Of a DNA stretch of 46,321 nt, positions 1 through 17,118 are shown piece after piece. A program made the translations under genes and the position numbers. Under the pieces are notes generated by a model. That model searched no databases. It was not told where the DNA came from and was given only the letters and a program-made list of their open reading frames with translations. Numbering within the stretch: position 1 is the stretch's first letter; each line of letters begins with the position of its first letter. Origin of the DNA: Treponema sp. (GTDB taxonomy: Bacteria > Spirochaetota > Spirochaetia > Treponematales > Breznakiellaceae); assembly GCA_003245635.1 (NCBI GenBank), contig QKCO01000016.1, positions 1-46,321 on the forward strand. The letters are read 5' to 3'.

Positions 1-78
1 TCAAGTTTCGATCCGCCCGAGAACGTCGTCAAGACGCTTATGACGCGCTTGCGGCGTTGACGAAAAGTCATTGCTGTT

Positions 79-107
79 TTGACAAATGACCGGCCCTGCG
101 CTAATAA
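79..107 (+). promoter_or_regulatory. sigma70-like promoter (TTGACA-17 nt-TAATAA) upstream of the yegP-like gene
   Basis: TTGACA at 79-84, a 17-nt spacer, then TAATAA at 102-107. The GGAGGA RBS at 131-136 and ATG at 140 follow. Confidence 0.35.
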
Positions 108-139
108 TTCAACAGCGAACTCATTCTACGGAGGACATT

Positions 140-322
140 ATGGCTGCAAAATTCGAGGTGTATCAGGACAAAGCAAAGAAGTTCCGCTTCAGGCTCAAAG
201 CCGGCAACGGACAGGTGATAGCGGTAGGCGAAGCCTACGAATCCAAGGCCTCCTGCTTGAACGGCATCGAGTCGATCAAGAAGAACGCCGCGGACGCCTC
301 AGTCGTCGACGTCGAGGAATAG
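140..322 (+). CDS. YegP/UPF0339 (DUF1508) family small protein
   Basis: ATG at 140 preceded by GGAGGA. The translation MAAKFEVYQDKAKKFRFRLKAGNGQVIAVGEAYESKASCLNGIESIKKNAADASVVDVEE has the single-repeat DUF1508 pattern (FRFRLKAGNGQVIA...Y.SK). Confidence 0.65.
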   Translation: MAAKFEVYQDKAKKFRFRLKAGNGQVIAVGEAYESKASCLNGIESIKKNAADASVVDVEE

Positions 323-326
323 CTTT

Positions 327-383
327 TACAAGGGGCTGTCCAAAAAGTTCGTAACACTTGTTTGGACAGCTTCCTTCTTGCGG
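327..383. repeat. ~57-bp intergenic palindromic element, copy 1
   Basis: The core GCTGTCCAAAAAGTTCGTAACACTTGTTTGGACAGC (335-370) is a 10-bp-arm inverted repeat, followed by TTCCTTCTTGC. It lies between the convergent ends of the yegP-like and 2-hydroxyacid dehydrogenase genes and is highly similar to the copy at 3345-3401. Confidence 0.5.
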
Positions 384-405
384 GTCAGCCTTTTTCGGAA
401 AACGG

Positions 406-1365
406 TCAGAGCTTCGGTTTGTTGACCGGCCAGCTCGGCGCCTTCCCCGAAAGCACTTCATCGATGCACCTTGCCGCATGCAGCGCCATGCGCAGGGTCG
501 CTTCTGCGGTCAAAGCCGCCGTATGCGGCGACAGGATCACGTTCTGCAAGCTCAACAGCGGATTGTCGGATCGAGGCGGCTCCGGGTCCAGCACATCCAG
601 GCCGGCCCCGGCTATGCGCCCCGACTTCAGGAACTCGTATATGTCCTCCTCGTTCACCACTTCGCCGCGCGCCGCGTTTACGAGATACGCGCTCGGCTTC
701 ATCAAGCCCAGCAGCTTCCTGTCGACGATCTTCTTCGTTTCCGCCAGGGCAGGCAGATGCAGGCTTATGAAATCCGCATTCTTGAACACGTATTCGATAT
801 CGGTCACGATTTCGGCATCGGGTACATCGCGGACGCTCTTGACGAAGGGGTCGTAGGCCAGGATTTTCATGTCCAAGCCGAAACGCGCTTTCCGGGCGAC
901 TAGGGAGCCGATGCGCCCCGCCCCCACGATGCCCAGCGTCTTGCCTTCCAGGTCGCAGCGTTTCGCCCGATTGCGGTACTCCCAGTCGCCGGCCCTCGCC
1001 GCCGCATCGCAGCGGACGGAATCCCGCGCAAGCGCGATCAGCATGCCGACGGCGTACTCGGCCACCGAGCCGGAGTTCGATTCCGGCGCGTTGGTGACCC
1101 ATATGCCGCGCTCGGCGGCGGCTGCGCAGTCGATATTGTCCACGCCGACGCCGTGCCGCGCTATCACCTTCAGCTTTTTGCCTGCTTCGATCACTTCCTT
1201 CGGGAAGGGCGCCGTCCGCGCCAGGATCGCGTCGCAATCGACGACGTCGGCTTTGATCGCTTCGATCGAGGCGCCGCTTCCCATTCTGATCTCGTATCCG
1301 CGATCGGTTAGATACTTCTTTCCCTCCGCCGCGATATCCTGCGGAATAAGAACGGTGAAACCCAT
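406..1365 (-). CDS. D-isomer-specific 2-hydroxyacid dehydrogenase (glyoxylate/hydroxypyruvate reductase / PGDH-like)
   Basis: The likely start is ATG at 1365 (MGFTVLIP), preceded by AGGGGG. It has the NAD-binding motif GIVGAGRIGS and the catalytic region typical of the D-2-HADH family (LHLP...NAARG...D...SPH). Confidence 0.85.
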   Translation of the reverse strand: MGFTVLIPQDIAAEGKKYLTDRGYEIRMGSGASIEAIKADVVDCDAILARTAPFPKEVIEAGKKLKVIARHGVGVDNIDCAAAAERGIWVTNAPESNSGSVAEYAVGMLIALARDSVRCDAAARAGDWEYRNRAKRCDLEGKTLGIVGAGRIGSLVARKARFGLDMKILAYDPFVKSVRDVPDAEIVTDIEYVFKNADFISLHLPALAETKKIVDRKLLGLMKPSAYLVNAARGEVVNEEDIYEFLKSGRIAGAGLDVLDPEPPRSDNPLLSLQNVILSPHTAALTAEATLRMALHAARCIDEVLSGKAPSWPVNKPKL

Positions 1366-1431
1366 ATTACCCCCTGAATCAAGCAGCGCTTTCGTCTTTG
1401 ACACCGGCGGGAGCATTGCGCTCCCGCTCGC

Positions 1432-2157
1432 CTACTTCGCGTTGCGCAAGGCGGCCATTTGGGTCCGCCATTCCTTCAGCGCCGCAAGATCCACTTCCTT
1501 GCCTTCGGCTATCGCTTTCCGGCAGCCGTCGAGAACCGGCATTTCGGCGGCGGCCGCTTTGCGGCAAGCGTCGCCCAGCTCGTGGGCGATCTCGTTCGGA
1601 ATCAGCACGACGCCGTGAACGTCCGCGGCCAGCAGATCTCCGGGCTTCACGGTCACGCCGGCGAAGGTCACCGGGCAGTCGTATTCCTCGATGTGGATAT
1701 ACCCGTGGGTGACCAGCAGGCACTTGGCGAAAAAGCCGAAGCCCAAGGGACCGACCTCATGGAGATCGCGCACGCCGCCGTTGGTGATCGTGCCCACCGC
1801 ACCCAGCGATTTATGCACGGTCGCGTTGACTTCGCCCCAGAAAGAGCCGACCGGTACCGGATCGATATCCTCGATGACGGCGATCGACGGACGCGGGGTC
1901 TTCTGCAGGACCCCGTAGTATTTCATCCAGTTTTCCAGATGCGCCGGGGTCGGCGGGTTGGCGGCCGACACTTTCGCCGTGCACGCGTACCCGATCATCG
2001 TCTTGCCGTACGGCAGAATGCACTTTATCTCCGGCGTCATGGCGCCTTCGATCCTCGAGCGAAGACCGAAACGCTCGATGGCGTTGGCGATGGTCGGTGT
2101 ATCGAATCCCCGCAGGCCTGCGACCTGGGCCGCCGTCAATTGCTTATTCGCTTCCAT
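1432..2157 (-). CDS. RraA-family protein (4-hydroxy-4-methyl-2-oxoglutarate / 4-carboxy-4-hydroxy-2-oxoadipate aldolase or oxaloacetate decarboxylase-like)
   Basis: 241 aa with AAGGAG upstream of the ATG at 2157. The RraA/MenG-like fold signature (GFDTPTIANA...GDLLAADVHGVVLIP) is present. Confidence 0.75.
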   Translation of the reverse strand: MEANKQLTAAQVAGLRGFDTPTIANAIERFGLRSRIEGAMTPEIKCILPYGKTMIGYACTAKVSAANPPTPAHLENWMKYYGVLQKTPRPSIAVIEDIDPVPVGSFWGEVNATVHKSLGAVGTITNGGVRDLHEVGPLGFGFFAKCLLVTHGYIHIEEYDCPVTFAGVTVKPGDLLAADVHGVVLIPNEIAHELGDACRKAAAAEMPVLDGCRKAIAEGKEVDLAALKEWRTQMAALRNAK

Positions 2158-2194
2158 CAGCGCGTTCTCCTTGTTCTATCCGTCAGTCTCATTT

Positions 2195-3316
2195 TTAAGA
2201 AGAATAGTTGCCCAGCTGCTTCCAGACCGAGGTGACCTCGGCGTAGCTGGCCATCGTCACTCCGGGCTCGAGAATATTGCCGCTCGTAAAGACGAAGCCG
2301 CCGCCGGGGGCCCCGTACGTCAAGGCGCGGGAGGCTTCTTCGCGGATTTCTTCCTTCGTTCCGGATATCAGCGTTTCCACGTTCATCCCGCCGAACAAGC
2401 ATAGTTTGCCGCCGTAACGTTCCTTCAGGAGCTTGATGTCCATTCCGATGCTCGGCTGAATTCCGTGCCAGCCGTCGATCCCCATCTCGACGAAGGAGTC
2501 GAGCACGTCCCACATCACGCCGTCTCCATGCTTGATGAAGTATTTGCCTTTCGCGTGCACGCTGTCGCAGATCCGCTTCAAATACGGCTGGATGAATTCC
2601 TTATAGCGGTCGACGCCCATGATGAGGCTCTTGCTGTCCGCGTAGTCCTCGGTCTCCATAACCGCGTCGCAGCCCGCATCGATGAAGGCATCAGCGTACG
2701 CGATGAACTTATTGCATTCGATATCCGCGATCTTATGGACTTGTTCTGGCTCGATTATCATCCGGATAAGGAACTCTTCCATCCCGACGGTATTCAGATA
2801 GGGGAACGTTCCCCCCACCGGAGGCTTGCCGATGATGAAGTGCGTCTTGCCCAGCTTTTTTACGATCGCCTCCGCGATCTCCATTTCGCAGTCTTCGATA
2901 TGAGCGACCGGGTCCGCGAAGATCTTTTCGACTTCCGCGTCGGGGTCCGTCACCACGGGGCAAACGACATTTCCCGCTTCCGGGTTGAATTCGAACTTTT
3001 TCTTTCCGTCGGTGAAAGCATGGTCGGCGACGCGCTTATACGCGGAATAATCCTTTTTCTTGGGCGCCGCCGGGACCCGAACATAATCCCACCCCATCTT
3101 CTCCGTGAGGGCGACGATCGAATCTATGTAGTCCGCAACCACCTTGTCCCGGTTGCCGGACCATAAGCTGTCGAGCTCTTCCCATCCGTGGTAGCAGAGC
3201 GAACTGTGCCCCATCACCTCTTGGAAAAAGGTATAGTCGAAGGCATTCTCGCCCCGAGGCACGCGATCGGCCTCCCGATGGCCGAGAGCGGCGATCATTC
3301 GTTCTTTTGAAGTCAT
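2195..3316 (-). CDS. uroporphyrinogen decarboxylase (URO-D) family protein (MtaA/CmuA-like)
   Basis: 373 aa. The N-terminus MTSKERMIAALGHREADRVP and the overall length and pattern are typical of URO-D-family decarboxylases/methyltransferases of anaerobes. Confidence 0.75.
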   Translation of the reverse strand: MTSKERMIAALGHREADRVPRGENAFDYTFFQEVMGHSSLCYHGWEELDSLWSGNRDKVVADYIDSIVALTEKMGWDYVRVPAAPKKKDYSAYKRVADHAFTDGKKKFEFNPEAGNVVCPVVTDPDAEVEKIFADPVAHIEDCEMEIAEAIVKKLGKTHFIIGKPPVGGTFPYLNTVGMEEFLIRMIIEPEQVHKIADIECNKFIAYADAFIDAGCDAVMETEDYADSKSLIMGVDRYKEFIQPYLKRICDSVHAKGKYFIKHGDGVMWDVLDSFVEMGIDGWHGIQPSIGMDIKLLKERYGGKLCLFGGMNVETLISGTKEEIREEASRALTYGAPGGGFVFTSGNILEPGVTMASYAEVTSVWKQLGNYSS

Positions 3317-3344
3317 ATTGTCGTCCTACCTGGATCTCCAGAAG

Positions 3345-3401
3345 ATAAGAGGCTGCCCGAACAGTTCGTAGAACTTGTTCGGACAGCTTCCTTATTGCTG
3401 C
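3345..3401. repeat. ~57-bp intergenic palindromic element, copy 2
   Basis: The core GCTGCCCGAACAGTTCGTAGAACTTGTTCGGACAGC (3352-3387) is followed by TTCCTTATTGC. It shares about 46 of 57 positions with copy 1. A compensatory A-to-G / T-to-C pair in the arms maintains the stem. It lies between the HIBADH-family stop and the URO-D-family start. Confidence 0.5.
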
Positions 3402-4312
3402 TAAGCGGAAGCTACGGCAGCCTTCTTTCTCACTTCGACACCCGCCACTTCCTCGAAAACCTTGATGATCGCCGAAGCGTCTTCCCGGCCGTAGCCCTTT
3501 CCGTTCGCCCAGAGGAATACCTCGCGGGATGCGGCGGAAGTATACAAGGGCACGTTGAGCTCCCTGCCGGTTTTCAGGCAGATATCGATATCCTTGATCT
3601 GAATATCCAGAGCGCCGCGGGTGCTGAAGTCGCCGTTCAGCAGCGCGTCGATCTTGTTCTCGAACATCCAGGAGCTTCCGGCGCTTTTCCTGATGATGTT
3701 CGCCATGATCTCCGGATCCGCACCCGCTTTGGTTCCGAGCACCAGAGCCTCCGCCATGGCGACCAGGTGCACCGTCACCATGAGCTGATTCGCGGCCTTG
3801 ACGACCGATCCGATGCCGATCTCGTCACCGACTTTCACCGCGTTGGAGCCGACGGCGAGAATAGCGTCCTTGCATTTCTGGAAGACCCGCTCCTCGCCGC
3901 CGACCATGATGACCAGCGTCCCGTTGGCGGCGCCGACAGAGCCGCCGCTGACCGGCGCGTCGAGCACCTCGACGCCCAAGGCGGAAGCGGCTTTCGCGAT
4001 CTGCTTGATCTCCGAAGGCGCGATCGTGCTGGTGACGATCAAGGTGCTCCCCGGCTTCATCCCGGACAGCACGCCGCCTGAGGCGACGGTGCTCGACTCG
4101 ACCTGGGCGAAATTCAGCACCATGACGAACACGATCTCAGAACGCTCTCCGACTTCCTTCAGGTTCGACGCGCCGAAAGCGCCCAGGCCGACCATTTCCT
4201 GAATAGGCTCCGGACGGATATCGAAAACGGTCAGTTCATACCCGGCCTTCAGCAGATTCTTCGCCATCGATTTGCCCATCGAACCTAAACCGATGATTCC
4301 TACCTTCTTCAT
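3401..4312 (-). CDS. NAD-binding beta-hydroxyacid dehydrogenase (3-hydroxyisobutyrate dehydrogenase / tartronate-semialdehyde reductase family)
   Basis: ATG at 4312 (MKKVGIIGLGSMG) with AGGAG 6 nt upstream. The Rossmann motif GLGxMG and the conserved catalytic lysine region (KAANQ) are present. Confidence 0.85.
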   Translation of the reverse strand: MKKVGIIGLGSMGKSMAKNLLKAGYELTVFDIRPEPIQEMVGLGAFGASNLKEVGERSEIVFVMVLNFAQVESSTVASGGVLSGMKPGSTLIVTSTIAPSEIKQIAKAASALGVEVLDAPVSGGSVGAANGTLVIMVGGEERVFQKCKDAILAVGSNAVKVGDEIGIGSVVKAANQLMVTVHLVAMAEALVLGTKAGADPEIMANIIRKSAGSSWMFENKIDALLNGDFSTRGALDIQIKDIDICLKTGRELNVPLYTSAASREVFLWANGKGYGREDASAIIKVFEEVAGVEVRKKAAVASA

Positions 4313-4321
4313 ATTCAACTC

Positions 4322-5206
4322 CTAGAGCGTATCGATGACAGCCTGGATCTCTGTATCGCTGAGCGTGATGTACTTGCCGCCGCGAACAGCCGTATTCTCG
4401 AACATTTCCAGAGTCCAGATATCGAACTCGGGTTCATTCTTGAAAATGAACGTTTCCTGGCTGGGCCGGATGGTCACGTTCGGGTTGTACTTCCAGGTGA
4501 TGTCGAACACTTCCTCCGGATGCGCGAGGGAATAGGTGATCTTTCCGCGGTACTCGTCGCCGACCTTGTACACGCAGGGAGTCGCGTTGCAGATCTTCCA
4601 TCCGATGCTTTCCATCTCGCGGCGGGCGAACATATCCAGCACCTTGGGATCGAAATTGATCTCGGTATTGCAGTGGATATGGGTAATGCCTTCCTTCTCG
4701 AAGTTCTCGACGTAGTAGGTCAGCCGCTTCCATTGCCGGGTGTTCTTGAACCAGTTCCGGATTTCTTCCTCTTCCTCGTATCCGACGCATTTGAAATCGA
4801 ACTGGCTGAACCACTTGTCCATGTACTTCTTGCCCCACCACAGGAGGTTCGTGCCGGCCTCGCCCCGGTTGTTGTCCATGGGCTGCAGGATCTTGTCGGC
4901 GCTGTATTCCCAGAACCAGTCGGTGAGCGGCATGAACCCCTTCCCCGCCGGATGGAGACCGTGCAGCGCGGCCCGGCCGGGCCCCGGTCCGACATGATCG
5001 ATGGCGCGGTCGAGGATCAGCCCGTTCGCCTTCATGCTGGCCTCGACGATCGGTTCCAGGCACTTGTACTCGACCTGGTTGTCCACGAAGGCGTGCACGT
5101 GGTAGACGGGTTCCTGCGGATTCTTCCACAGATCCATCGTGTCCTTCCAATGCTTGGATTTAAAATAATCGCTGACTTCCTGTACGATCTTGCTTCGCGT
5201 ATTCAT
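4322..5206 (-). CDS. hypothetical protein (294 aa, aromatic-rich, no recognisable family)
   Basis: ATG at 5206 with AGGAGG 6 nt upstream, and the gene is followed directly by the next gene's RBS. Its GC is lower than the neighbours, and the W/Y/F/K/E-rich sequence contrasts with typical proteins in this window. Reading-frame codon bias is clear. Confidence 0.6.
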   Translation of the reverse strand: MNTRSKIVQEVSDYFKSKHWKDTMDLWKNPQEPVYHVHAFVDNQVEYKCLEPIVEASMKANGLILDRAIDHVGPGPGRAALHGLHPAGKGFMPLTDWFWEYSADKILQPMDNNRGEAGTNLLWWGKKYMDKWFSQFDFKCVGYEEEEEIRNWFKNTRQWKRLTYYVENFEKEGITHIHCNTEINFDPKVLDMFARREMESIGWKICNATPCVYKVGDEYRGKITYSLAHPEEVFDITWKYNPNVTIRPSQETFIFKNEPEFDIWTLEMFENTAVRGGKYITLSDTEIQAVIDTL

Positions 5207-5216
5207 TGAATTCCTC

Positions 5217-5237
5217 CTGGTATACCTTGTATACGTT
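5217..5237. promoter_or_regulatory. candidate GntR-family operator (TGGTATACCTTGTATAC)
   Basis: Perfect 8-bp palindrome GGTATACC (5219-5226) followed by TTGTATAC. It sits just 5' of the RBS of the 294-aa gene. A near-identical motif occurs at 42945-42966. Confidence 0.4.
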
Positions 5238-5311
5238 CGTTCTACAGACTTGCTGCGTCTCTTTACCGTTTGCTGAAACGTGAGTGTTCGGCTATGCCGT
5301 TCTTAGTTCAT

Positions 5312-6826
5312 TCACTTTTTTGTTATTGCCTCCTTGATCTTCCCGACGATCATCCGAGGAATCCCGATCTGACTCAGGATCGTGTAGACAATCATGGCGA
5401 GAACGATCAGCGCGATCGGCCGCGTAACGAAAGGAGCGAAACTGCCGTCCGCGCCCTGCAGCGCCCGCCGGATATTGGTATCCGCCAGGGGCCCCAGAAT
5501 CACTCCGAGCACGATGGGCGCGGCGGGGTACTTCAGGCGATCGAAGGCATAGCCGAGAAGGCCGAACAGGAACATGACATAGAGATCGAAGATATTGATG
5601 TTGAGCGCGTAGCTTCCGATAATGGACAGCACAGCGACGATCGGCATCAGGATATACGGCTTGACCTTCAGAATATTCGGCGCGACATGGCAGATTGCCA
5701 GCGCGAATATCCGCATCACGAAAGCGGCCAGCAGCAGTATTCCTCCCATCTTGAAAATGAAGGTGGGGAACTCGAACGAGAGCATGGGGCCCGGCCGGAT
5801 GCCGTGCAGCCACAGCGCTCCCAGAAGGACCGCCGCCGGAGCGCTTCCGGGGATGGCGAGGCTGAGCAGTGGTATCAGCGCTCCGCCGATCGCGGCGTTG
5901 TTCGCCGTCTCGGCGGCGATGACGCCGTCGTAGGAACCGGTGCCGAATTTCTCAGGAGTCTTGCTGGCTTTCTTAGCCTGGTCGTAGGAGAGCCAGGCGG
6001 CGACATCCTCGCCGACGCCAGGGATCGCGCCGATGAAGGTTCCGATGGCGCCGGAACGCAGTATCGTCGGCGTGAACCGTCTGAGCATGGAGAACATGCT
6101 CATCTTCTCGGTCTTGCCGATTCCCGTCACTTTCGCCTCGCCCGGCTCAGCGGACAATTCGGCGATCACGTTCGGGATTCCGAACAAGCCGATCATGGCG
6201 GAGACGAACGCGACGCCTCCGAGCAAACCCATAATGTTGAATGTGTATCGGGGATACGAATAGATTCCTTCGAAGCCGATCGTCGAAATCGCGAGCCCCA
6301 GGAGGCCACCGATCCACCCCTTGATAACCTTCCCGGTCGCCGATAGGGAACCGCAGATCATGACGCCGAAAATAGCCAGCAATGCGAACTCTGCCGAAGT
6401 GAAGTTCAGCGCCAGCTTCTGCAGCAGCGGAGTGAAGCCCGCCAGGCAGATCATCCCGAACAGCGTTCCCAAGAAGGAAGCTATGAACGAAAGTTTGAGC
6501 GCCGTGCCGCCCTCGCCCTTGACGGCGAGCGGATGGCCGTCGAGGACCGTCGCCGCGGCGGAACCCGTCCCCGGTATTCCGATCAGAACCGACGATATCG
6601 AACCGCCCGATATGCCGCCGACATAGATGCCGAGAAGCACTATAAGCGCGACGTCGGTCGACATTCCATATGTGAGCCCCGCGAGCAGCGCGATGCCCAT
6701 GGTCGCGGTAAGCCCCGGCAACGCGCCCATGATCAGTCCGGCGACGGAGCTTACGGCCAGCAACAGAATATTCTGCACGGTGATCAAGTGCACTAATTCG
6801 GTGAAGAGACCAATTATCGAGTTCAT
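5312..6826 (-). CDS. tctA: tripartite tricarboxylate transporter permease TctA
   Basis: 504 aa, polytopic, with a glycine-rich TctA signature (GALPGLTATMGIALL, GIYVGGISGGSISSVLIGIPG). GAGAGGA RBS upstream. Confidence 0.9.
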   Translation of the reverse strand: MNSIIGLFTELVHLITVQNILLLAVSSVAGLIMGALPGLTATMGIALLAGLTYGMSTDVALIVLLGIYVGGISGGSISSVLIGIPGTGSAAATVLDGHPLAVKGEGGTALKLSFIASFLGTLFGMICLAGFTPLLQKLALNFTSAEFALLAIFGVMICGSLSATGKVIKGWIGGLLGLAISTIGFEGIYSYPRYTFNIMGLLGGVAFVSAMIGLFGIPNVIAELSAEPGEAKVTGIGKTEKMSMFSMLRRFTPTILRSGAIGTFIGAIPGVGEDVAAWLSYDQAKKASKTPEKFGTGSYDGVIAAETANNAAIGGALIPLLSLAIPGSAPAAVLLGALWLHGIRPGPMLSFEFPTFIFKMGGILLLAAFVMRIFALAICHVAPNILKVKPYILMPIVAVLSIIGSYALNINIFDLYVMFLFGLLGYAFDRLKYPAAPIVLGVILGPLADTNIRRALQGADGSFAPFVTRPIALIVLAMIVYTILSQIGIPRMIVGKIKEAITKK

Positions 6827-6842
6827 TCGTTTTCCTCTCTGC

Positions 6843-7388
6843 TTACGGCAGGGGTATCAGCGCATAATGCGAGAACCCGTAACTGACGATGAAGGAAGTC
6901 AGACCGCTGATGATCGTTATCTTCGCAAGCACTTTCCAGCTGAATTTCTCGTCTTTGAAAACCATCATGGTGATGAACAGGTAAAGGAAGGTAGAAATCT
7001 CGTATTGCACCCGCCCGATCATTACGTAGATATAGAGGACCAGAAGTCCCGTCGCGATCGACCATCTCCGGAAATGGGCCGTCTTAAAATAGGCAAGAGC
7101 TCTCTTGATATCCTCGCGATGGATTCCCTTCGATTCGGGAACGATCTGAATGAATAGGATCGCGAGGGCGATGAACATGCCGATGCTGATGATGATGGGG
7201 AAAACAGCCGGCGCCGTATACCATTTCTGCGGATCTCCGGTCACCGACTCTACCGGCATGCGCAGCGCGCCTATGAAGTAGAAGATGGTCGCGATCAGCA
7301 AGATCCCTCCGAAGATGAGATCTTTTTTCCGTAGGATTCTATTCTGTTCTTGTTCTTCGGTCTCGGAAATGTCTCTTTCGTCTGCCAT
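6843..7388 (-). CDS. tctB: tripartite tricarboxylate transporter small subunit TctB
   Basis: Small 4-TM membrane protein between tctC and tctA. Start chosen as ATG at 7388; the TTG at 7403 is also possible. Confidence 0.65.
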   Translation of the reverse strand: MADERDISETEEQEQNRILRKKDLIFGGILLIATIFYFIGALRMPVESVTGDPQKWYTAPAVFPIIISIGMFIALAILFIQIVPESKGIHREDIKRALAYFKTAHFRRWSIATGLLVLYIYVMIGRVQYEISTFLYLFITMMVFKDEKFSWKVLAKITIISGLTSFIVSYGFSHYALIPLP

Positions 7389-7440
7389 ACCGTCCACCTG
7401 CAAACCCGGCTCGGGATTTACGTCTTACCGTTCGTCGATC

Positions 7441-7470
7441 ACCGGAAAACGATTCTGATGCATGCCGCGC
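7441..7470 (-). promoter_or_regulatory. intercistronic stem-loops downstream of tctC
   Basis: CATGC-CGC-GCATG (7441-7453) overlaps ATGGGCGG-TTAG-CCGCCCAT (7451-7470; 8-bp perfect stem). No immediate U-tract follows on the minus-strand RNA. Confidence 0.35.
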
Positions 7471-7525
7471 ATGGGCGGTTAGCCGCCCATACACGGCAGT
7501 TCCAGATAAGCCAGCGCCCCTTGGC

Positions 7526-8557
7526 TTAAGGCTTCGCGATCCCGAAATCGCTGGGGGATTTCTTGGCCGCACCGAGGTCGTACAACGCCCAGGAATAAAC
7601 GGAATCCAGCTCCTTGGTTAGGTCGGCGGCTTCTTTTCCCTGGATACCGAGAAGATCGAACTTGGTATCGTTCGAAAGCTTTTTCATCAAATCCGATTTC
7701 ATCGCCACGGTGAACGCTTTCTGGTATGCATCCTTGATGTTCTGGGGCGTATCGCCGGGGATGCCGACGCCGACCCATACTTTTGGAGCAGGGAGCTTAT
7801 TGAAATCGGGATACAGTCCTGAAATCGCCGGAATCTCGCCGAATCCTTCCATCTTTACCGGCTCTTTCTCGATAACCGCGAGCGGCTTCAGTTTTCCGGC
7901 AAGAATGTACTCCCGCTGCTCCGCAAGTCCGGTGAGCGTGAAATCGACCTCGTGCGAGAGCGCCGCGACCATAGAAGGCTGGCTGCCTTCGTAGGGCATA
8001 TGATTGATTTCGAGTCCGGATACCTTCTCAAGCTGGGAAACTTTGAGATCCCATACGCTGCCGGCGGAGGAGCCGGAGGACTTGAGCTTTTTCGATTTGC
8101 CGGCGTTGATCAAATCCTGGATCGATTTATAGGGAGAATCTTCCGGAACGGACAAAACGCCGGGAGTCCCCATGGACATCAGGTAGTCCCATTTATCGTT
8201 GGTCACGTCGAAAGCGCCCACGACGTTGAGGGAATGCACGCCGGAAGAGCAGCCGAACAAAGTATAGCCGTCATGCTTCTGATTCCAAACATAATTCGCG
8301 GCAACGCCGCCCGCGCCGCCGGTCATGTTCACGACGGAAAAGGGAACGCCGAAATACTCTTCGAAAGCTTTTCCCAGGCCGCGCGCGGAAAGATCCGTGG
8401 CGCCGCCGGCTCCTGCAAATACGACGATGGATACCGGCCGAGCGGGCTTCCACTCTCCGGAGGACGCGCTGCTCGCTTCCTTTCTACCGTTGGCGAATGC
8501 CGTTGCCCCCAACAGCAAACAGAGCAGCAGAACCAGTGAATTTTTACCGAACTTCAT
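7526..8557 (-). CDS. tctC: tripartite tricarboxylate transporter substrate-binding protein TctC (Bug family)
   Basis: 343 aa with an N-terminal signal peptide and Bug/TctC family motifs (GGATDLSARGL...VNMTGGAGGV). AAGGAGG RBS upstream. Confidence 0.9.
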   Translation of the reverse strand: MKFGKNSLVLLLCLLLGATAFANGRKEASSASSGEWKPARPVSIVVFAGAGGATDLSARGLGKAFEEYFGVPFSVVNMTGGAGGVAANYVWNQKHDGYTLFGCSSGVHSLNVVGAFDVTNDKWDYLMSMGTPGVLSVPEDSPYKSIQDLINAGKSKKLKSSGSSAGSVWDLKVSQLEKVSGLEINHMPYEGSQPSMVAALSHEVDFTLTGLAEQREYILAGKLKPLAVIEKEPVKMEGFGEIPAISGLYPDFNKLPAPKVWVGVGIPGDTPQNIKDAYQKAFTVAMKSDLMKKLSNDTKFDLLGIQGKEAADLTKELDSVYSWALYDLGAAKKSPSDFGIAKP

Positions 8558-8792
8558 ACTAGATCCTCCTTAGTTCAACCCTGCAGGATTACTGCTTTAG
8601 TCGACTTTAGAAATCATTTTAATACACTTCTGAATATTGTCAATTTATTTCGCTTTATAATAAATCTATTTTTTGATATAATGAATTCATTTATAGATAA
8701 ATATCGCCTTATTTAAAGAGCTGAGAAACATTCTTGACGGAAAAGTTCCGAGGGAGTAATCTGATTTCACTTTAGTAAGATAGGATTCATAT
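8558..8792. promoter_or_regulatory. AT-rich divergent promoter region (tctC leftwards, gntR rightwards)
   Basis: 235 bp that is visibly far more AT-rich than the rest of the window, lying between the tctC and GntR starts, with multiple TATAAT/TTGAC-like hexamers. Confidence 0.5.
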
Positions 8793-9545
8793 ATGACTGA
8801 AAAGAATTCAAACAAACAAAAACCCTCGATGGATAAAGAACCGAGCGATGCTATCGTCATGGTCCACAACGCTTTGCGGGAAAAAATCATGAACAAGGAA
8901 CTGCTGCCGGGTGAAAAGATCAACCAGATTGCGGAGGCCAACCTACTTCATGTCAGCCGCACACCCGTGGTCAATGCATTGCATCGGCTTGAGTCGGAGG
9001 GCTTGGTAGACCGAACCCAGAATTCAGGTTTTACCGTACACCGCCTATCCATAGGTGAGCTTCAGGAGTTATTCGATCTGCGTGAGGTTTTCGACATCAT
9101 AGTAGCCAACGATTTGGCGATAAACGCTACCGATGAGGAAATCGACGTTCTCGAGAATCTATTTTCCCACTATTTAACGCATCCTGAAGAGTTGACGGTA
9201 GAGACCTACCGTGCGCTGGACCTGGAATTTCATACGCTGCTTGTCAAATACTGCCGCAACAGCATGATGCATAAGATCTACGATAATTTTCAGATACTTG
9301 CGAGAACCTATACGGCCGGACTGATCCGCCACTATACAGAAACGCTGCAGGAACACATGACCATCATAAACGCCTTTCGGCAACACGATCCGAAGGCCGC
9401 GGAAAAGGAAATGCGAGAACACAATGCTAAGACGACCTCTTTGATTCATGAAACCATATCGGGACTCAAGCGAATGGGGCTTGATCCCGGCACGATCCAT
9501 GTCGATGATGTCATGCTTTCGCGAAACGATCGCGCGGCGCCCTAA
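8793..9545 (+). CDS. GntR-family transcriptional regulator (FadR/FCD C-terminal domain)
   Basis: N-terminal winged HTH (GEKINQIAEANLLHVSRTPVVNALHRLESEGLV) plus an FCD-type helical C-terminal domain, 250 aa. Confidence 0.85.
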   Translation: MTEKNSNKQKPSMDKEPSDAIVMVHNALREKIMNKELLPGEKINQIAEANLLHVSRTPVVNALHRLESEGLVDRTQNSGFTVHRLSIGELQELFDLREVFDIIVANDLAINATDEEIDVLENLFSHYLTHPEELTVETYRALDLEFHTLLVKYCRNSMMHKIYDNFQILARTYTAGLIRHYTETLQEHMTIINAFRQHDPKAAEKEMREHNAKTTSLIHETISGLKRMGLDPGTIHVDDVMLSRNDRAAP

Positions 9546-9637
9546 TATCGGAGGAATGGAGCCGAAGCCATCCATCGGATTTATTTGACATTTAAGTCAT
9601 ATTTGAGAAATTTCTTCCTTATAGAAGGAGAGCCTTC

Positions 9638-10057
9638 ATGTTCGATTTCAGCCTTTCCTGGGTTCCGCTCGTCGTCGTCGCGCTCGCCAACTTCTTCATG
9701 AGCTGGCTCTGGTATTCCCCGATCCTGTTCATGAAGCCCTGGGCAAAAGCCCTCGGCACCTACGGCAAGACGGAAATGACAGAAGCCGAGAAGCGCGCCA
9801 TGCCCTTCCTTTTCGCCAGCGGACTCCTCTCGTCCTTCATCCTATCTTTCGGCCTGCAGGCGGTGGTCCGCGGACTCGGCGCCGAAAGCTTCGCGCAGGG
9901 AGCGCTCGCCGGAACGGTGCTGTGGGCGGTCTTCGCGCTCACCCACAGCCTCAATACGCTCTGGGAGGGCCGCAAACCGATCGTGCTCCTAATCAACAAC
10001 GGCCTGTTCCTGCTCACTTACGCGCTTTTCGGCGGTACCGTCGCCGTCTGGCGTTGA
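9638..10057 (+). CDS. DUF1761 family membrane protein
   Basis: The MFDFSLSW... start, 4 TM segments and 139 aa are typical of the DUF1761 architecture. GAAGGAG RBS upstream. Confidence 0.65.
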   Translation: MFDFSLSWVPLVVVALANFFMSWLWYSPILFMKPWAKALGTYGKTEMTEAEKRAMPFLFASGLLSSFILSFGLQAVVRGLGAESFAQGALAGTVLWAVFALTHSLNTLWEGRKPIVLLINNGLFLLTYALFGGTVAVWR

Positions 10058-10657: not shown

Positions 10658-11455
10658 CTACGCTTTCCGCTCTTTCTTTCCCCAGCCCACGGCCGCGCGC
10701 ATGCGGGCGTGGGCGGCGGGGGAGAATTCCAATTTAACCGAAAGAGAAGCGAAGCCCGGCGCGTCGGCCGACTGCGCGGCTTCGGAACATTCGCCCTTCA
10801 GCGTGCAGGAGAGATCCCCCTCGGAGGGCTCGAACTCCACGATATCGCCGGGAGCGGGAAGCGGTCCTTCGAATTCGCCGAAAACGCGCATCGACCGCGC
10901 TGATATAGCGACGACCTTCAATCGATCCGCGACGCAGCCTTCCTTCAGGATCGATACGTGCGCGCATTGGAGGGTCTTCTCGATCTGCTCGCCGGACAGG
11001 TCCCCGTCCGGCGCTTCCTTGTAGAAGAGCTCCGCTTCGTCGACATTCATGAAATACGACACGAGCAGTTCCTTGAACGCGAGAGGCGCGGTCGAAAACT
11101 CGATGTCGATGAAGCAGTAGGGGGAGGCGGGATCGGGCTTGCGGAACGCGACGATGCGGCAGACCAGAAAGAAGCTCTCCGGCTTCGAGCTGTAGGGCGA
11201 TTTCCAGGTGATCGAGAATTTCTGCTGCTTCGCCGCGTACGGCGAGAAGAAGCCGACTTCGCGTTCGCTCAAGAAAGCCAGAAGACTCGCCTTGCCGAGC
11301 GAAAGGTCGAACGGCACGCAGGAAACGAAGAATTCCTCGATCCGCAAATGGATGCTTTTCTTTATCAGCCCGAGCCGATCGAAAACCGCCGGCGTCAGCC
11401 GGAGCGTCCGATCCTGGTAGGCCGCTGCTTTCTCGTTGACCAGTCGGGAGTCCAT
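10658..11455 (-). CDS. hypothetical protein, possible PilZ-domain (c-di-GMP binding) protein
   Basis: Start ATG at 11455 (MDSRLVNEK) with GGAG upstream. The N-terminal half has an RxxR...(~30 aa)...DxSxG arrangement reminiscent of PilZ, but the match is weak. Confidence 0.45.
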   Translation of the reverse strand: MDSRLVNEKAAAYQDRTLRLTPAVFDRLGLIKKSIHLRIEEFFVSCVPFDLSLGKASLLAFLSEREVGFFSPYAAKQQKFSITWKSPYSSKPESFFLVCRIVAFRKPDPASPYCFIDIEFSTAPLAFKELLVSYFMNVDEAELFYKEAPDGDLSGEQIEKTLQCAHVSILKEGCVADRLKVVAISARSMRVFGEFEGPLPAPGDIVEFEPSEGDLSCTLKGECSEAAQSADAPGFASLSVKLEFSPAAHARMRAAVGWGKKERKA

Positions 11456-11566
11456 CGTTCCCACTTTACTCCAAGGCACGGCGGCGGTAAAGATCGGCCG
11501 AACGGCGGAGCGCCTTTTTGCATGCGAAATCTGTTCGGTTTCAGCCCGAACGTGCTATAACCGGGC

Positions 11567-12148
11567 ATGGAACGAACACGGATCGAAACCCTCTGCGTCT
11601 ACTGCGGATCCAATTACGGGATATCGCCCGAATACAAGGCCGGCGCCGAAGCGCTCGCCGACGCCATGGCGAAACGCGGCATATCATTGGTGTACGGGGC
11701 GGGCAACGTCGGCCTCATGGGAGCGCTCGCCGATCGGCTCATCGAACGGGGAGGACGGGCCGTCGGCGTGATTCCGCGCAAGCTCGCCGACCTCGGGCTG
11801 TCCCACGGCGGACTACATGAAACGGTCATCGCCGAAACGATGCGCGAACGCAAGGCGGCCATGATCGAGCGCGGCGACGCCTTCGTCGCCCTGCCCGGCG
11901 GCATCGGCACCATCGAGGAGCTTGCGGAGCTCATGACGCTCAACCAGCTCGGGTACACGGCCAAGCCGATCGGCCTGCTCGATTCGGGCGGCTTCTGGCA
12001 GCCGTTCATCGCCTTCATGGAGCACGTCGTCGCGGAGGGCTTCCTGAAGCGGGCCCAGCTAGACCAACTGGTCGTCGAATCCGATCCCGAACGGCTCCTC
12101 GATCGCCTCGCCTCCGCCGAGACGCGCTACGTTCCCAAATGGAATTGA
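11567..12148 (+). CDS. LOG-family cytokinin riboside 5'-monophosphate phosphoribohydrolase (TIGR00730)
   Basis: Has the CVYCGS...GG...PGGIGTIEE motifs diagnostic of the LOG/YvdD family; 193 aa. Confidence 0.85.
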   Translation: MERTRIETLCVYCGSNYGISPEYKAGAEALADAMAKRGISLVYGAGNVGLMGALADRLIERGGRAVGVIPRKLADLGLSHGGLHETVIAETMRERKAAMIERGDAFVALPGGIGTIEELAELMTLNQLGYTAKPIGLLDSGGFWQPFIAFMEHVVAEGFLKRAQLDQLVVESDPERLLDRLASAETRYVPKWN

Positions 12149-12220
12149 GCTGCGGGCTTTTTGCATTGCGGCGGCCGAAGAATTAGGATTAGAGCTTAGC
12201 CGCTTTTCCGGGAGAATCGA

Positions 12221-14125
12221 ATGAAACGCATTTCTACGTTCGTTGTCGTCGTCAACGCCGCAATCTTCGCGCTCGTGCTCGGCGTCTTTTCCGTGCTCGT
12301 CACCCGGCAATCCGCGTCGATGATCGAAGACGACTCGCGCCAGCTGCTGACCGAATGGACGGAGTCCTGGGGCAAACGGGTCGACGGCATCTTCGCCGAA
12401 CGCTTCGCGTACATCAAATTCTACAAGGACTATATCGCCCGCACGCTGACCCTCGACACGCTCGGCGACGGCAAAGCGCTGCGCGAATACTTCAAGAAGA
12501 TGATCGAAGTCGGCTCCGGAGTGATGGAGAAGGAGCGTTTCCTCGACCTCTACGCGTGGTTCGCCCCCGAGTACACCGACGATGTGCAGCACCTCACGAT
12601 ACAGAGCCTCAAGATGGACGGCAAGCTCGAGTACAAGAGCGATACGCGCTACAAGCGCGCGGACATGGGAGGGGCTGACTGGGCCTGGTTCACCGACGCG
12701 GAAAAGAACGGAAGAACCATCACCGAACCGTACGTCTGGGAAGGCTTCGACGACAAGCTCGTCTCCATGACCGAAGTCCTCGAGATCGCCGGAAAGAAGG
12801 TCGGCGTCGTCGGATCGGACCTGTTCGTCGGATCCTTCGGCAAGGATCTCGACGCGCAGAAGATCCTGAAGACGGGCTATTTCGCGGTTCTAAGCGATTC
12901 GGGAACCCTGCTCTTCCATCCGACGGCGGCGGGCAAGAAGGCGGAGGAAGTTTTCGGCCCCGAAGGGGCGAAGCTCATCGACCGCATCAAAGCGACGAAG
13001 ACGGGTTCGGGCGTCCTCGAGATCAAAATGAACGGTCAGCGTCAGCTGATCGGGTTCAGGACCCTTTCGAGCGGCTGGCGGCTTCTGGCGGTGCCGACCA
13101 TGAGCGAGATCTTCGCGCCCGTCTATCGGCTCATCGCGATGATGGTCCTGTTCTCCCTCATGGCCATCGCCGTCCTCGTGGCGCTTTCGCTGGTCGTCGG
13201 CCGCTCGCTCGCCAAGCCCATCGGTTCGGTGACCCAGCTCCTTTCGGTGATCGCGTCGGGAGATCTCCAGATCGACATCCCCGAAACGCTGCTCGCGCGC
13301 AAGGACGAACTGGGAGCGCTCGCCGCTTCGACCGGCCGGATGGTTGAGAACATAGCCGACATCATCGAGAACGCGAAAGGCGCGTCCGCGGTGGTCCTCT
13401 CCGGCTCGAACGAGATCACCGACGCATCAGCGCAACTCAGCCAGGGCGCTTCCGAGCAGGCGGCCTCCATGGAGGAGGTTTCGAGCTCGATGGAGGAGAT
13501 GGCCGCGAACATCAAGCAGAATTCGGACGGAGCCCAGGAGACCTACTCCATCGCGGCGAAGACGGCGGACGACGCCAAGCGGGGCGGCCAGATGGTCGCG
13601 CAGGCGGTCGAAGCGGTCCGCCGCATCTCCGAGAAGATCGGCATCATAGACGAGATCGCGCGCCAGACGAATCTGCTCGCGCTCAACGCCGCGATCGAAG
13701 CCGCCCGGGCGGGAGACGCCGGCAAGGGCTTCGCGGTCGTCGCGAGCGAAGTGCGCAAGCTCGCCGAACGCAGCCAAGTGGCCGCGGCGGAAATCACCGA
13801 CCTATCGGGAAACACCGTTTCGGTATCGGAGCAGACCCTCGCCATCATCGAGGCCATCGTCCCGAGCATCGAGAAAACCACCGAAATGCTGCAGGAGATA
13901 GCCACCGCCAGCCGCGAGCAGACGGTCGGCGCCGAGCAGATCAACCTCGCGCTCGCGCAACTGGATAAAGTCGTCCAGCAGAACGCGGCTTCTTCCGAGG
14001 AGCTGTCTGCGACCGCGGGCACGCTCAACGGCAAGGCGACCGAACTCGACGAAATCGTATCGTTCTTCAAAATCGGCGGCGGCAAAGACCGAGGCGGCAA
14101 GCTGCTCGAACTGCCGGAGGCGTAG
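12221..14125 (+). CDS. methyl-accepting chemotaxis protein with a Cache-type periplasmic sensor domain
   Basis: Order is N-terminal TM, periplasmic domain, second TM, HAMP, then a conserved MCP signalling domain ([32 protein letters not shown]). Confidence 0.9.
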
Positions 14126-14177: not shown

Positions 14178-15374
14178 TTATTTTTCCGCGTATTCCTTGA
14201 ACTTTCCCAGACCTTCCTCGATCAAGGCCATGTCGATGCCCGAATAGGCTAGGCGCACGTAGCGGCGCGTCTCTCCCGGCAGCGCGCGGCCGAAATGGAG
14301 CCGCGTGCAGAAGGAAACGCCGGTCGTGTGCAGGACATCTTTGCGGAAACCCTCGTAGTCGTCGGCGAATCCCTTGGCCTTCATCAGAGCGGTCACGTCG
14401 GGGTACAGGTAGAAGGTGGCGTCGGGGCGGTAGCAGGTGACGCCGGGGACGGAATTGAGGATGACGGCCGCTCTGTCCCGCCGCTCCTTCAGGATACCGA
14501 TGATCTTCCGCGATCCGCTCTGGTCGCCGGTGAGAGCTTCGATGCCGGCCAACTGGATGAAGTTGGAGGTGCAGGATTCGTCGTTGAGGTTGAGCTTGGC
14601 GATGACGTCGATCACCGACCGGGGTCCGAGCGCGGCGCCCAGGCGCCATCCGGTCATCGCGTACTTCTTGGAGAAGGTGTAGAGGATAATTGAGCGCTCG
14701 GCCATGCCGGGGAAGGATACCAGCGTCTTCGACTTGCCCGAGAAGCGCATGTCGAAATAGGCCTCGTCGCACAGGACGTAAAGGCCGTGCTTCACCGCGA
14801 ACTCCGCGATCGCCTTCAGCTCCGCCTCAGAAGCCTCGGCTCCGGTCGGATTCTGCAGGTCGTTGACGATGAGGAGCCTCGTCTTGGGAGTGACCGCCTT
14901 CTCGAGCGACGCCATGTCGAAGCCGAAATTGTCCTTACCGGGCACGAAGCCGTACGGAACGGCCTTGCCGCCGTGGAACTCTATCTGCGACTCGTAGATC
15001 GGGTAGCCGGGGTTCGGGTAGAGGACTTCGTCGCCGGGGTTCATGAGCGATAGGATGAACTTGCCGATGACCGGCTTCCCGCCGGGCTGGATCGCGACGT
15101 TCGAGGCGTCGAAGGACGTGCCGTGGCTGGCGTTGACGTCGGCGGCGAGCGCTTCCCGGAGTTCGGCGATGCCGGCGTTGGCGACGTAGCCGGTCTTTCC
15201 GTCGAGCATCGCCTTATGTGCCGCCTCGATGATGTTGTCGGGCGTGCGGATATTGATGTCGCCTATGTGGAAGGCGTAGACCTTGTGGCCCTGCGCCGCC
15301 CACTCGCGGGCTTCCGCCGAAACGGCGAACGCGGTTTCCGTGCCGAGCCGTCCGATCCTTTCCGCGTTTTTCAT
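14178..15374 (-). CDS. pyridoxal-phosphate-dependent aminotransferase, class I/II (aspartate aminotransferase family)
   Basis: Start ATG at 15374 (MKNAERIG) with AGGAGG upstream. The family N-x-P-x-N-P-T-G motif (NDLQNPTGA) and PLP-lysine motif (FSKKYAMTGWRLG) are present. Confidence 0.85.
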   Translation of the reverse strand: MKNAERIGRLGTETAFAVSAEAREWAAQGHKVYAFHIGDINIRTPDNIIEAAHKAMLDGKTGYVANAGIAELREALAADVNASHGTSFDASNVAIQPGGKPVIGKFILSLMNPGDEVLYPNPGYPIYESQIEFHGGKAVPYGFVPGKDNFGFDMASLEKAVTPKTRLLIVNDLQNPTGAEASEAELKAIAEFAVKHGLYVLCDEAYFDMRFSGKSKTLVSFPGMAERSIILYTFSKKYAMTGWRLGAALGPRSVIDVIAKLNLNDESCTSNFIQLAGIEALTGDQSGSRKIIGILKERRDRAAVILNSVPGVTCYRPDATFYLYPDVTALMKAKGFADDYEGFRKDVLHTTGVSFCTRLHFGRALPGETRRYVRLAYSGIDMALIEEGLGKFKEYAEK

Positions 15375-15498
15375 GCTGCCTCCTGTCGTATCCGAAATGC
15401 GAATTCCACTGTCGCGCCGCTCGCCGGCGCTGTCAAGAGAAAAGAGCCGCGCCTGCCTCGGGCCTTGCACGGTTCGGCCGACGCGGGAGGCGAAGGGC

Positions 15499-15963: not shown

Positions 15964-15982
15964 TTCAATCTCCTTAGAGGAA

Positions 15983-17068: not shown

Positions 17069-17103
17069 CCCTATCCAGGTTGGATCGGGTTGTCAAGTTT
17101 ACC

Positions 17104-17118
17104 CTCGAACGATTCGAG
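17104..17118. promoter_or_regulatory. candidate LacI-family operator (CTCGAA-CGA-TTCGAG)
   Basis: 6-bp perfect inverted repeat with a central CG, nested inside the outer 7-bp inverted repeat TTGTCAA...TTGACAA, in the divergent lacI/dctP promoter region. Confidence 0.4.

Follow-up and report, generated by a model that had tools for sequence, protein, structure and literature searches.

A TTT transporter-linked operon of Treponema sp. with an apparently undescribed protein family and a possible role in sugar-acid catabolism

We analysed a 46,321-nt stretch of Treponema sp. DNA (contig QKCO01000016.1 of assembly GCA_003245635.1), hereafter referred to as the window, in which eight co-directional minus-strand open reading frames (ORFs) span positions 406-8557. 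These encode a TctCBA transporter of the TTT family, a 294-residue protein that matches no family (the orphan), a beta-hydroxyacid dehydrogenase of the HIBADH family (beta-HAD), a URO-D/MtaA-superfamily barrel, an RraA-like protein and a D-isomer-specific 2-hydroxyacid dehydrogenase (2-HADH). The ORFs of the tctC-tctB-tctA-orphan-HIBADH-URO-D-RraA-2-HADH array and the divergent plus-strand FCD-GntR regulator gene are all placed as in the initial annotation, and the Pfam assignments agree with its list of domains (Table 1). Gene content and synteny also support its view of the locus as a TTT-linked catabolic operon under that regulator.

The operon is a variant of the familiar TTT- or TRAP-linked acid catabolic clusters that follow a GarL/GarR-like logic. 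There is an even chance, in our judgement, that it serves anaerobes as a mobile, non-phosphorylative cassette for the breakdown of a sugar-type hydroxy-(di)carboxylic acid, the last step being the pyruvate-forming cleavage of a 2-oxo acid. Somewhat more tentatively, the orphan may represent a new metalloenzyme family, with a fold outside the PDB, that catalyses the committed dehydration or enediol isomerisation/epimerisation step of an undescribed, anaerobic, kinase-free and redox-neutral pathway for such acids; its paralogues in Dehalococcoidia, Clostridia and other anaerobes may do likewise for other acids.

The orphan family and its conserved cassette

Sequence and profile searches of the orphan against Pfam, NCBIfam and the PDB returned no match, and the same holds for 51 diverse members of its family. 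When 1.84 billion cluster representatives were searched exhaustively with a profile, only 109 clusters were retrieved at E<=1e-3, with 50 at E<=1e-30. The family appears undescribed. The structure of the orphan is modelled confidently (pLDDT 90.5), and a Foldseek search with this model found no significant solved structural homologue.

The orphan arose by internal tandem duplication, as residues 1-140 and 141-294 align with an hhalign probability of 99.7% (E 8.4e-26), and each half-HMM finds two domains in each family member. Each repeat has a YFxSxxW helix at its start and an HxH motif on the first long strand (H36/H38 and H176/H178). Residues H176, H178 and P187 are invariant in the 51 members, down to 19% identity, while H36, H38, R67, K222 and several aromatic residues are at least 90% conserved in the same set. 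This pattern suggests a putative metal site flanked by basic residues suited to a carboxylate substrate, and the orphan is a predicted cytoplasmic metalloenzyme, which may constitute a new enzyme family or fold. The initial annotation treated it as a bystander, but no other component of the cassette is as tightly conserved or as unusual.

The VOC superfamily (glyoxalase/HPPD) shares with the orphan a tandem beta-alpha-beta-beta-beta-containing module and histidines on the first strand of each repeat. The top Foldseek matches, none of them significant, are all of VOC type (HPPD, hydroxymandelate synthase, glyoxalase I and methylmalonyl-CoA epimerase). Membership of this superfamily was considered and set aside, as there is no significant match in sequence or structure and profile comparison with a neighbouring glyoxalase gave no support. 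The hosts, which appear to be mostly anaerobes (see below), argue against an oxygenase role, and an O2-dependent enzyme of the HPPD/HglS type is thus unlikely. A 139-residue ORF that follows orphan paralogues in Dehalococcoidia was examined as a possible single-repeat relative and is unrelated.

Only 15 orphan relatives were found among 5.8 billion proteins, and their neighbourhoods were read and compared by BLAST. Eight independent loci, the window included, carry an orphan orthologue (56-89% identity). A beta-HAD orthologue is present in all eight and directly adjoins the orphan in seven. The TTT system is found in seven, being replaced by ABC and MFS transporters in L006. RraA-like orthologues occur in six of the eight (51-86% identity in the five related loci) and 2-HADH orthologues in five (45-53% identity in the four related loci). 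In contrast, the URO-D-like gene is limited to the window and L001, a deletion remnant being present in L023. These counts define the conserved cassette as the TTT transporter, the orphan, the beta-HAD, a pyruvate-type lyase and the 2-HADH. The URO-D-like gene is accessory to the cassette in a single sublineage; a 4.4-kb JGI contig probably carries it as well, since homologues of the orphan, the URO-D-like gene and the RraA-like gene are all listed on a contig of this length.

Conservation of the exact gene order, proposed as a check in the initial annotation, is observed in an Oceanispirochaeta metagenome-assembled genome (MAG; L001), and the core is conserved in six further loci. Proteins encoded by seven of the eight operon genes are 74-89% identical to their L001 counterparts (a value of 70% is also recorded for a TctB orthologue), the 2-HADH being 48% identical, and a GntR orthologue (64% identity) holds the same position. 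At the DNA level, the operon genes are about 71-74% identical to those of L001, and gntR is 68% identical. All eight genes keep their order in spite of roughly 26-28% DNA divergence, which points to selection on the array as a whole. Chance does not account for the arrangement.

L002, from a Firmicutes MAG, lacks the RraA-like gene and features HpcH/HpaI- and DHDPS-family genes instead, while L006 carries genes of all three families. The best model for the HpcH protein of L006 is GarL (245 bits, below the cut-off of 393), and that for the L002 protein is HpaI, followed by GarL, again below threshold. Judged by family membership, the probable common denominator of these enzymes is pyruvate-type lyase chemistry on 4-hydroxy-2-oxo acids. 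L002 also encodes a true tartronate-semialdehyde reductase (16563-17465; 494 bits against a cut-off of 397), directly after an orphan paralogue and a DHDPS-family gene.

Orphan paralogues of 288-293 residues (37-41% identity) are present in several loci. In L004, one of them fills the exact slot held by the URO-D-like gene in the window. Gfo/Idh/MocA dehydrogenases and LacI regulators flank the cassette or the paralogues in L004, L006 and L023. A scan of genomes added 12 loci, two of which duplicate L001 and L004, and a scan of metagenomes added 31. A group of 306-residue paralogues from Dehalococcoidia and other hosts recurs with SDR, PF04199 'cyclase' hydrolase, 2-HADH and HpcH genes; over all loci, the neighbours of paralogues comprise SDR, 2-HADH, Gfo/Idh/MocA, PF04199 'cyclase' hydrolase, HpcH and PrpD proteins. 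By analogy, these contexts resemble the dehydrogenase, lactonase, missing dehydratase and aldolase pattern of non-phosphorylative sugar-acid routes. Among the genes characterised in the cassettes, there is no kinase, CoA-dependent enzyme or oxygenase. A literature search for the gene combination gave no match.

Three paralogues of the 306-residue type are arranged in tandem on one metagenomic contig (L040, 4666-7600). In a Dehalococcoidaceae MAG (L016, 12-12075), genes for a formate-dehydrogenase-N-like molybdenum enzyme, an FeS subunit, a cytochrome b and an FdhE-like protein are followed, in the same direction, by a paralogue, PrpD/MmgE, an SDR, a second paralogue, a glyoxalase, a 2-HADH and an FMN reductase.

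Transporter and enzymes of the operon

TctA, TctB and TctC all pass their Pfam thresholds, the tctB and tctA genes being separated by 16 nt, and tctA orthologues are 62-87% identical in seven related loci. TctC begins with a hydrophobic signal-like peptide, MKFGKNSLVLLLCLLLGATAFA, as judged by eye. The system has the three subunits of the TctCBA citrate transporter in the canonical C-B-A order; unlike that system, it has no adjoining TctDE two-component regulator and is accompanied by the FCD-GntR gene instead. The nearest solved relatives of TctC are the unannotated binding protein 25hk (1e-31) and the uncharacterised proteins 5oei and 4x9t. Others are terephthalate-binding proteins and Bordetella Bug proteins, and none is labelled as a citrate or tricarboxylate binder. 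We take the ligands of these solved relatives to be adipate (5oei), aspartate/glutamate, nicotinate or quinolinate, not citrate. TTT binding proteins mostly take mono- or dicarboxylates. The argument that a TTT transporter implies a tricarboxylate substrate thus finds no backing in the annotation of the nearest solved TctC relatives. Upstream of the L001 operon (1-9882), tctC is present three times, tctBA twice and the GntR gene twice; all these copies are 64-87% identical to the genes of the window, and the module for uptake and regulation has been amplified locally.

The RraA-like protein retains the Arg-Asp dyad of the HMG/CHA aldolases (CHA, 4-carboxy-4-hydroxy-2-oxoadipate), as its GGVRD motif aligns with AGVRD of 3NOJ, an entry deposited as HMG/CHA aldolase/oxaloacetate decarboxylase to which it scores about 40 bits. 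The dyad is the catalytic one of these aldolases (R123/D124 in 3NOJ numbering). LigK/GalC enzymes of this kind, which act in protocatechuate 4,5-cleavage and gallate degradation, share the RraA-like fold and the dyad with the window protein, the products of which would likewise include pyruvate; unlike in those pathways, there are no ring-cleavage, hydratase or isomerase genes here and the hosts appear anaerobic. CHA aldolase models are the second and third NCBIfam matches of the protein, although the HMG/CHA aldolase equivalogs are missed by far (TIGR02798, 58.3 against 304.5; NF006731, 64.3 against 179). It also fails the RraA equivalogs (NF006875, 29.7 against 136; TIGR02998, 24.8 against 241), and its 241 residues compare with about 160 in RraA.

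The protein is as close to FlDet of Flavobacterium sp. UMI-01 (27% identity over 245 residues) as to the HMG/CHA aldolase. FlDet is an RraA-family 2-keto-3-deoxyglucarate dehydratase/decarboxylase (PMC8563752) of similar length (237 against 241 residues), which acts on a sugar diacid and shares the T-[DN]-G-G-x-R-D motif. Unlike FlDet, which is partnered by an aldehyde dehydrogenase in an aerobic alginate pathway (PMC8563752), the window protein has no such gene beside it. Three 2-oxo-acid chemistries have been demonstrated in the RraA family, and the sequence gives no basis for preferring one of them. The window protein is probably a metal-dependent 2-oxo-acid lyase, that is, an aldolase, decarboxylase or dehydratase-decarboxylase. 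The proposal that it is an HMG/CHA-type aldolase finds support in the dyad, but not in the curated equivalogs or in the equal closeness to FlDet. The context of an 82% identical RraA homologue was inspected for a clue to a substitute for the orphan and rejected, since the gene is an isolated one, with GntR regulators and a secreted protein as its neighbours.

The beta-HAD matches L-threonate dehydrogenase best among NCBIfam models (270.5 bits, cut-off 350), followed by tartronate-semialdehyde reductase (267.8 bits, cut-off 397). Its top PDB matches, 3cky, 3g0o and 1vpd, are essentially equal at about 215 bits and correspond to a 2-(hydroxymethyl)glutarate dehydrogenase, a HIBADH and a tartronate-semialdehyde reductase. 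Eight beta-HADs linked to the orphan in related loci were scanned as well: seven score best with L-threonate dehydrogenase and one (L008) with the reductase, and all are nearly equal on both models and below both cut-offs. By these scores, they form what looks to be a distinct clade, sister to enzymes acting on 2,3-dihydroxy acids. The 2-HADH resembles 3-phosphoglycerate dehydrogenase (PGDH) and glyoxylate reductase, with 289 bits against a threshold of 454 for the former and 218 against 455 for the latter.

The URO-D-like protein scores 59-73 bits with MtaA/CmuA methyltransferase models (cut-offs 235-400) and 29 with HemE (TIGR01464, cut-off 303). Its AF2 model (pLDDT 89) matches MtaA (4ay8) with a Foldseek E of 3e-15 and TM scores of 0.73/0.79, and UROD with a TM score of about 0.7. 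The full-length fold is thus shared with both MtaA/MtbA and HemE, but the equivalogs of both are far off. MtaA/CmuA proteins have an HxC...C zinc site; alignment to 4ay7 and the family invariants place HxD (H263 and D265) at the HxC position of MtaA. The protein has G-N where UROD has G-H-G, the position being aligned to NLGHG. A Pfam scan found no B12-binding or corrinoid protein gene in the window operon. The initial annotation had cast this protein as a decarboxylation step, a role that is not upheld by a score nearer to MtaA/CmuA than to HemE, an equal fold and an orthologue in only two of eight loci.

The URO-D-like family is large and found in anaerobes (743 matches at E<=1e-10). In a Clostridia MAG (L024, 2119-12996), a 68% identical orthologue is accompanied by a 2-HADH and TctBAC, with no orphan; the set is under two sigma-54 PrpR-type activators, and a second set composed of TTT, 2-HADH, Ldh_2 and PIG-L genes lies downstream. 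Another orthologue (L026) occurs with a GntR regulator and an FGGY kinase, again with no orphan. A distant URO-D-family gene (401 residues, 4702-5907) and a Pterin_bind/B12-binding pair (16242-17719) are located near the cassette in L008 and could represent a corrinoid methyltransferase set. A corresponding role for the window protein was rejected, as the L008 protein is only 27% identical over 96 residues and the window lacks the partners.

The proposed route and its alternatives

As substrate, we consider a polyhydroxy mono- or dicarboxylate most likely, such as an aldarate, an aldonate, a tartrate or a threonate. TctABC would import the acid, and the orphan would convert it, either as a metal-dependent dehydratase, our first choice, or as an enediol-type isomerase/epimerase. 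The orphan, the apparently translationally coupled beta-HAD and the 2-HADH would together yield a 2-oxo acid, which the RraA-like enzyme would cleave or decarboxylate to pyruvate and a short acid-aldehyde or acid. One dehydrogenase would oxidise and the other reduce, acting for instance on a tartronate-semialdehyde-type product; with the two opposed, the route would be redox-balanced and require no kinase, CoA or O2, as suits fermenters. The URO-D-like barrel would be an add-on module of one sublineage. The FCD-GntR protein is likely a repressor of the operon, which it would release when the acid or an intermediate appears. We infer each catalytic step, the substrate and the co-transcription of the eight genes.

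Among the closest known systems is the glucarate/galactarate pathway (GudD/GarD, GarL and GarR), in which tartronate-semialdehyde reductase consumes the aldehyde released by GarL. Like that pathway, the proposed route is non-phosphorylative and combines acid-sugar uptake with a pyruvate lyase that uses a divalent metal and with a member of the GarR/LtnD branch of the HIBADH family; moreover, GarL-like aldolases and one true GarR are found in the related loci. In contrast to that pathway, there is no enolase-superfamily or GarD-type dehydratase and no glycerate kinase here, and the orphan occupies the place where a glucarate-type route expects its dehydratase. The lyase is of RraA type rather than HpcH type, and transport is of TTT type rather than through the MFS carriers GudP/GarP. 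Unlike GarR, the window beta-HAD falls below the model cut-off (268 against 397).

Several points weigh against this route. Every enzyme of the operon falls below all curated equivalog cut-offs, which means that homology assigns no reaction, and the TctC ligand is not readable from the sequence. The window operon contains no recognised sugar-acid dehydratase, lactonase or kinase, which leaves the route hinging on the putative activity of the orphan. The scheme leaves the URO-D-like gene without a role, and the support for a pyruvate-type aldolase comes from related loci whose substrates may differ. Finally, the RraA-like subfamily is common (837 matches at E<=1e-20) and also occurs away from the cassette (L059).

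An alternative that we consider unlikely is a dehydrogenase-first route through a beta-keto acid, amounting to net redox-neutral decarboxylation of a tartrate-like or threonate-like substrate. The LtnD-like beta-HAD or the 2-HADH would oxidise the substrate to an oxo-hydroxy acid; the orphan would be a metal-dependent tautomerase/isomerase, analogous to OtnI or hydroxypyruvate isomerase, or an epimerase; and the RraA-like protein would act as an oxaloacetate-type decarboxylase, the second dehydrogenase reducing the product to glycerate or a similar compound. The model is attractive since L-threonate dehydrogenase is the best match of the beta-HAD, which is apparently coupled to the orphan in translation, and since the 3NOJ enzyme is deposited as aldolase/oxaloacetate decarboxylase. 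Two dehydrogenases and one lyase would also fit a redox-neutral scheme for anaerobes. In the published threonate pathway, the isomerase OtnI acts after a dehydrogenase (PMC12994016). The operon shares with the L-threonate/D-erythronate pathway (LtnD, OtnI, OtnK and OtnC) its LtnD-type best model and the pairing of a dehydrogenase with a second small enzyme. Unlike that pathway, it encodes no kinase, no OtnC-type decarboxylase and no protein recognised as OtnK or OtnI type, and the LtnD cut-off is missed. The orphan has no homology to any isomerase. Moreover, DHDPS-type enzymes partly replace the RraA-like gene in L002, and to our knowledge these enzymes do not act as beta-keto-acid decarboxylases.

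We regard as improbable the model of the initial annotation, in which a CHA-, citrate- or homocitrate-like hydroxy- or oxo-tricarboxylate is taken up, decarboxylated by the URO-D-like protein, reduced by the two dehydrogenases and cleaved by an HMG/CHA-type aldolase to pyruvate and oxaloacetate. The TTT transporter, the conserved R-D dyad, the rank of the CHA aldolase models (second and third, at 64 and 58 bits) and the presence of PrpD/MmgE, a tricarboxylate dehydratase family, beside a distant paralogue in Dehalococcoidia are in its favour. However, the wide shortfall to the CHA aldolase equivalogs (58 against 304.5 and 64 against 179), the solved TctC relatives, with no citrate or tricarboxylate annotation among the nearest, and the URO-D-like gene, which most related loci lack and which is as near to MtaA as to UROD, speak against it, while the GarL/HpaI- and DHDPS-like aldolases elsewhere and the true reductase of L002 point to straight-chain sugar diacids. 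The TTT-linked catabolic operon and the idea of an RraA lyase are supported parts of that model; the tricarboxylate and the decarboxylation by the URO-D-like protein are weakly supported.

It is likewise improbable that the operon is a mosaic, fused by recombination, of an orphan, beta-HAD and RraA module and a URO-D and 2-HADH module, possibly with the TTT genes, serving two substrates without a single linear pathway. Such a mosaic would account for the URO-D orthologues that lack an orphan in L024 (68% identity) and L026, for the paralogue in the URO-D slot of L004 and for the L023 deletion, which removes most of the URO-D-like gene and keeps the rest. It is at odds with the eight-gene order maintained between the window and L001 despite DNA divergence, and with the 2-HADH orthologues that accompany the orphan without a URO-D-like gene in L002, L006 and L008. 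Hardly credible, finally, is the possibility that the RraA-like protein regulates RNase E, the orphan is not an enzyme and the clustering has no metabolic meaning. Automated annotations do label several homologues 'regulator of RNase E activity RraA', but with RraA equivalogs the protein scores only 25-30 bits (cut-offs 136-241), it retains the aldolase dyad and the orphan has invariant histidines. Synteny of the RraA-like gene with dehydrogenase and transporter genes extends across phyla, and in L002 aldolase-family genes take its place. A 2-oxo-acid lyase fits better than an RNase E regulator, given that HpcH- and DHDPS-type genes are present where the RraA-like gene is absent.

Operon layout, host and implications

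The features of the locus are listed in Table 1. From tctC to the 2-HADH gene, the intergenic gaps measure 122, 16, 105, 3, 84, 37 and 15 nt. The short gaps reported in the initial annotation are confirmed (3-122 nt), but overlaps between a ribosome-binding site (RBS) and a stop codon are limited to the junction of the orphan and beta-HAD genes, where GGAG overlaps the TAG of the orphan. These two genes are apparently translationally coupled. The beta-HAD likely starts at the ATG at 4312. For the 2-HADH, codon 18 (ATG at 1365) is the probable start, and the preceding gap would then extend to about 66 nt.

Table 1 Features of the operon and its borders in the window
Feature	Positions	Strand	Description
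gntR, FCD-type GntR regulator, 250 aa	8793-9545	+	Pfam GntR and FCD; divergent from the operon
Control region, AT-rich	8558-8792		235 bp between tctC and gntR
tctC, periplasmic solute-binding protein	7526-8557	-	PF03401, 88.9 bits against cut-off 27
tctB, small membrane subunit	6843-7403	-	PF07331, 38.9 bits against 29.1; start codon uncertain
tctA, large membrane subunit	5312-6826	-	PF01970, 441.5 bits against 28.9; full-length match
Orphan (signature gene), 294 aa	4322-5206	-	No family match; tandem domains of ~145 aa, HxH in each
beta-HAD, HIBADH family	3401-4318	-	NAD_binding_2, 149 bits; NAD_binding_11, 114 bits
URO-D/MtaA-superfamily TIM barrel, 373 aa	2195-3316	-	PF01208, 86.6 bits against 23.9
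RraA-like protein, 241 aa	1432-2157	-	PF03737, 88.2 bits against 24.5
2-HADH	406-1416	-	PF02826, 191 bits; PF00389, 103 bits
Perfect 10-nt inverted repeat	335-344 / 361-370		Between the operon end and the convergent DUF1508 gene
DUF1508 (YegP-like) small gene	140-322		Convergent with the operon end

The region between tctC and gntR contains candidate control elements. A near-consensus promoter-like site, TTGACA-16-TAAAAT (11/12), lies upstream of tctC at 8643-8616 of the minus strand, and a divergent plus-strand site for gntR at 8654-8682. A strong AAGGAGG RBS precedes tctC, and weak inverted repeats are found at 8588-8617 and 8660-8694. A promoter and control function for these elements is suggested by their sequence. 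Terminator-like sites across 1-9700 are no more frequent than expected by chance (13, against 9.3 +/- 2.4 in shuffled sequences). The inverted repeat at 335-370 is possibly a bidirectional terminator, although it was not picked up in the scan for consensus terminators. Ahead of the DUF1508 gene, at 79-108, lies another near-consensus promoter-like site, TTGACA-18-AATAAT.

The GC content at third codon positions (GC3) is 0.59-0.82 in the operon (0.59 in gntR) and 0.85-0.90 in neighbouring host genes. The closest operon is that of the Oceanispirochaeta MAG, which has a GC content of 48%. In L023, the cassette is flanked by transposases (Transposase_mut and IS110; 3551-4443 and 10898-14020), and an internal deletion leaves fragments of a second beta-HAD and of the URO-D gene. 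The low GC3, the AT-rich control region, the nearest relative in a spirochaete and the transposases of L023 suggest an old, partly ameliorated horizontal acquisition. Comparison of 406-9545 with a plasmid collection by megablast gave no match.

Judging from taxon names and sample sources, the hosts are probably mostly anaerobes. They include Oceanispirochaeta, a Clostridia MAG from an anaerobic bioreactor, Dehalococcoidia, Desulfobacterales and Bathyarchaeia, and one distant paralogue locus is found in Rhodovulum. The window host is a high-GC diderm with LolCE and TRAP transporters. A [FeFe]-hydrogenase-like gene at 36959-38305 (306.6 bits to monomeric FeFe hydrogenase B1, cut-off 450) suggests that it is anaerobic as well. 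The window also contains a second acid-uptake neighbourhood (14178-20142), composed of genes for a class I/II aminotransferase, a MaoC-like dehydratase and the TRAP components DctP (17180-18211) and DctM (18832-20142). It is followed by an ORF of 664 codons (20460-22454), the C-terminal part of which is enoyl-CoA hydratase-like.

TTT-linked catabolic operons are common and mostly have no assigned role, and the operon described here is an entry point to an undescribed protein family. Although the rarity of this family limits the breadth of impact, it offers a confident structural model, a candidate active site composed of four His, Arg and Lys residues, and a fixed beta-HAD partner. The fixed partnership with the dehydrogenase and the binding protein makes the function of the orphan directly testable. 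Assignment of its reaction would bring a new enzyme family into sugar-acid metabolism, possibly along with a new fold, and would broaden what is known of the chemistry of RraA-like lyases and of URO-D-like barrels that are neither haem- nor corrinoid-related. It would also give a function to about 100 clusters, mostly from hard-to-culture anaerobes among the Dehalococcoidia, Clostridia, Spirochaetes and Desulfobacterales.

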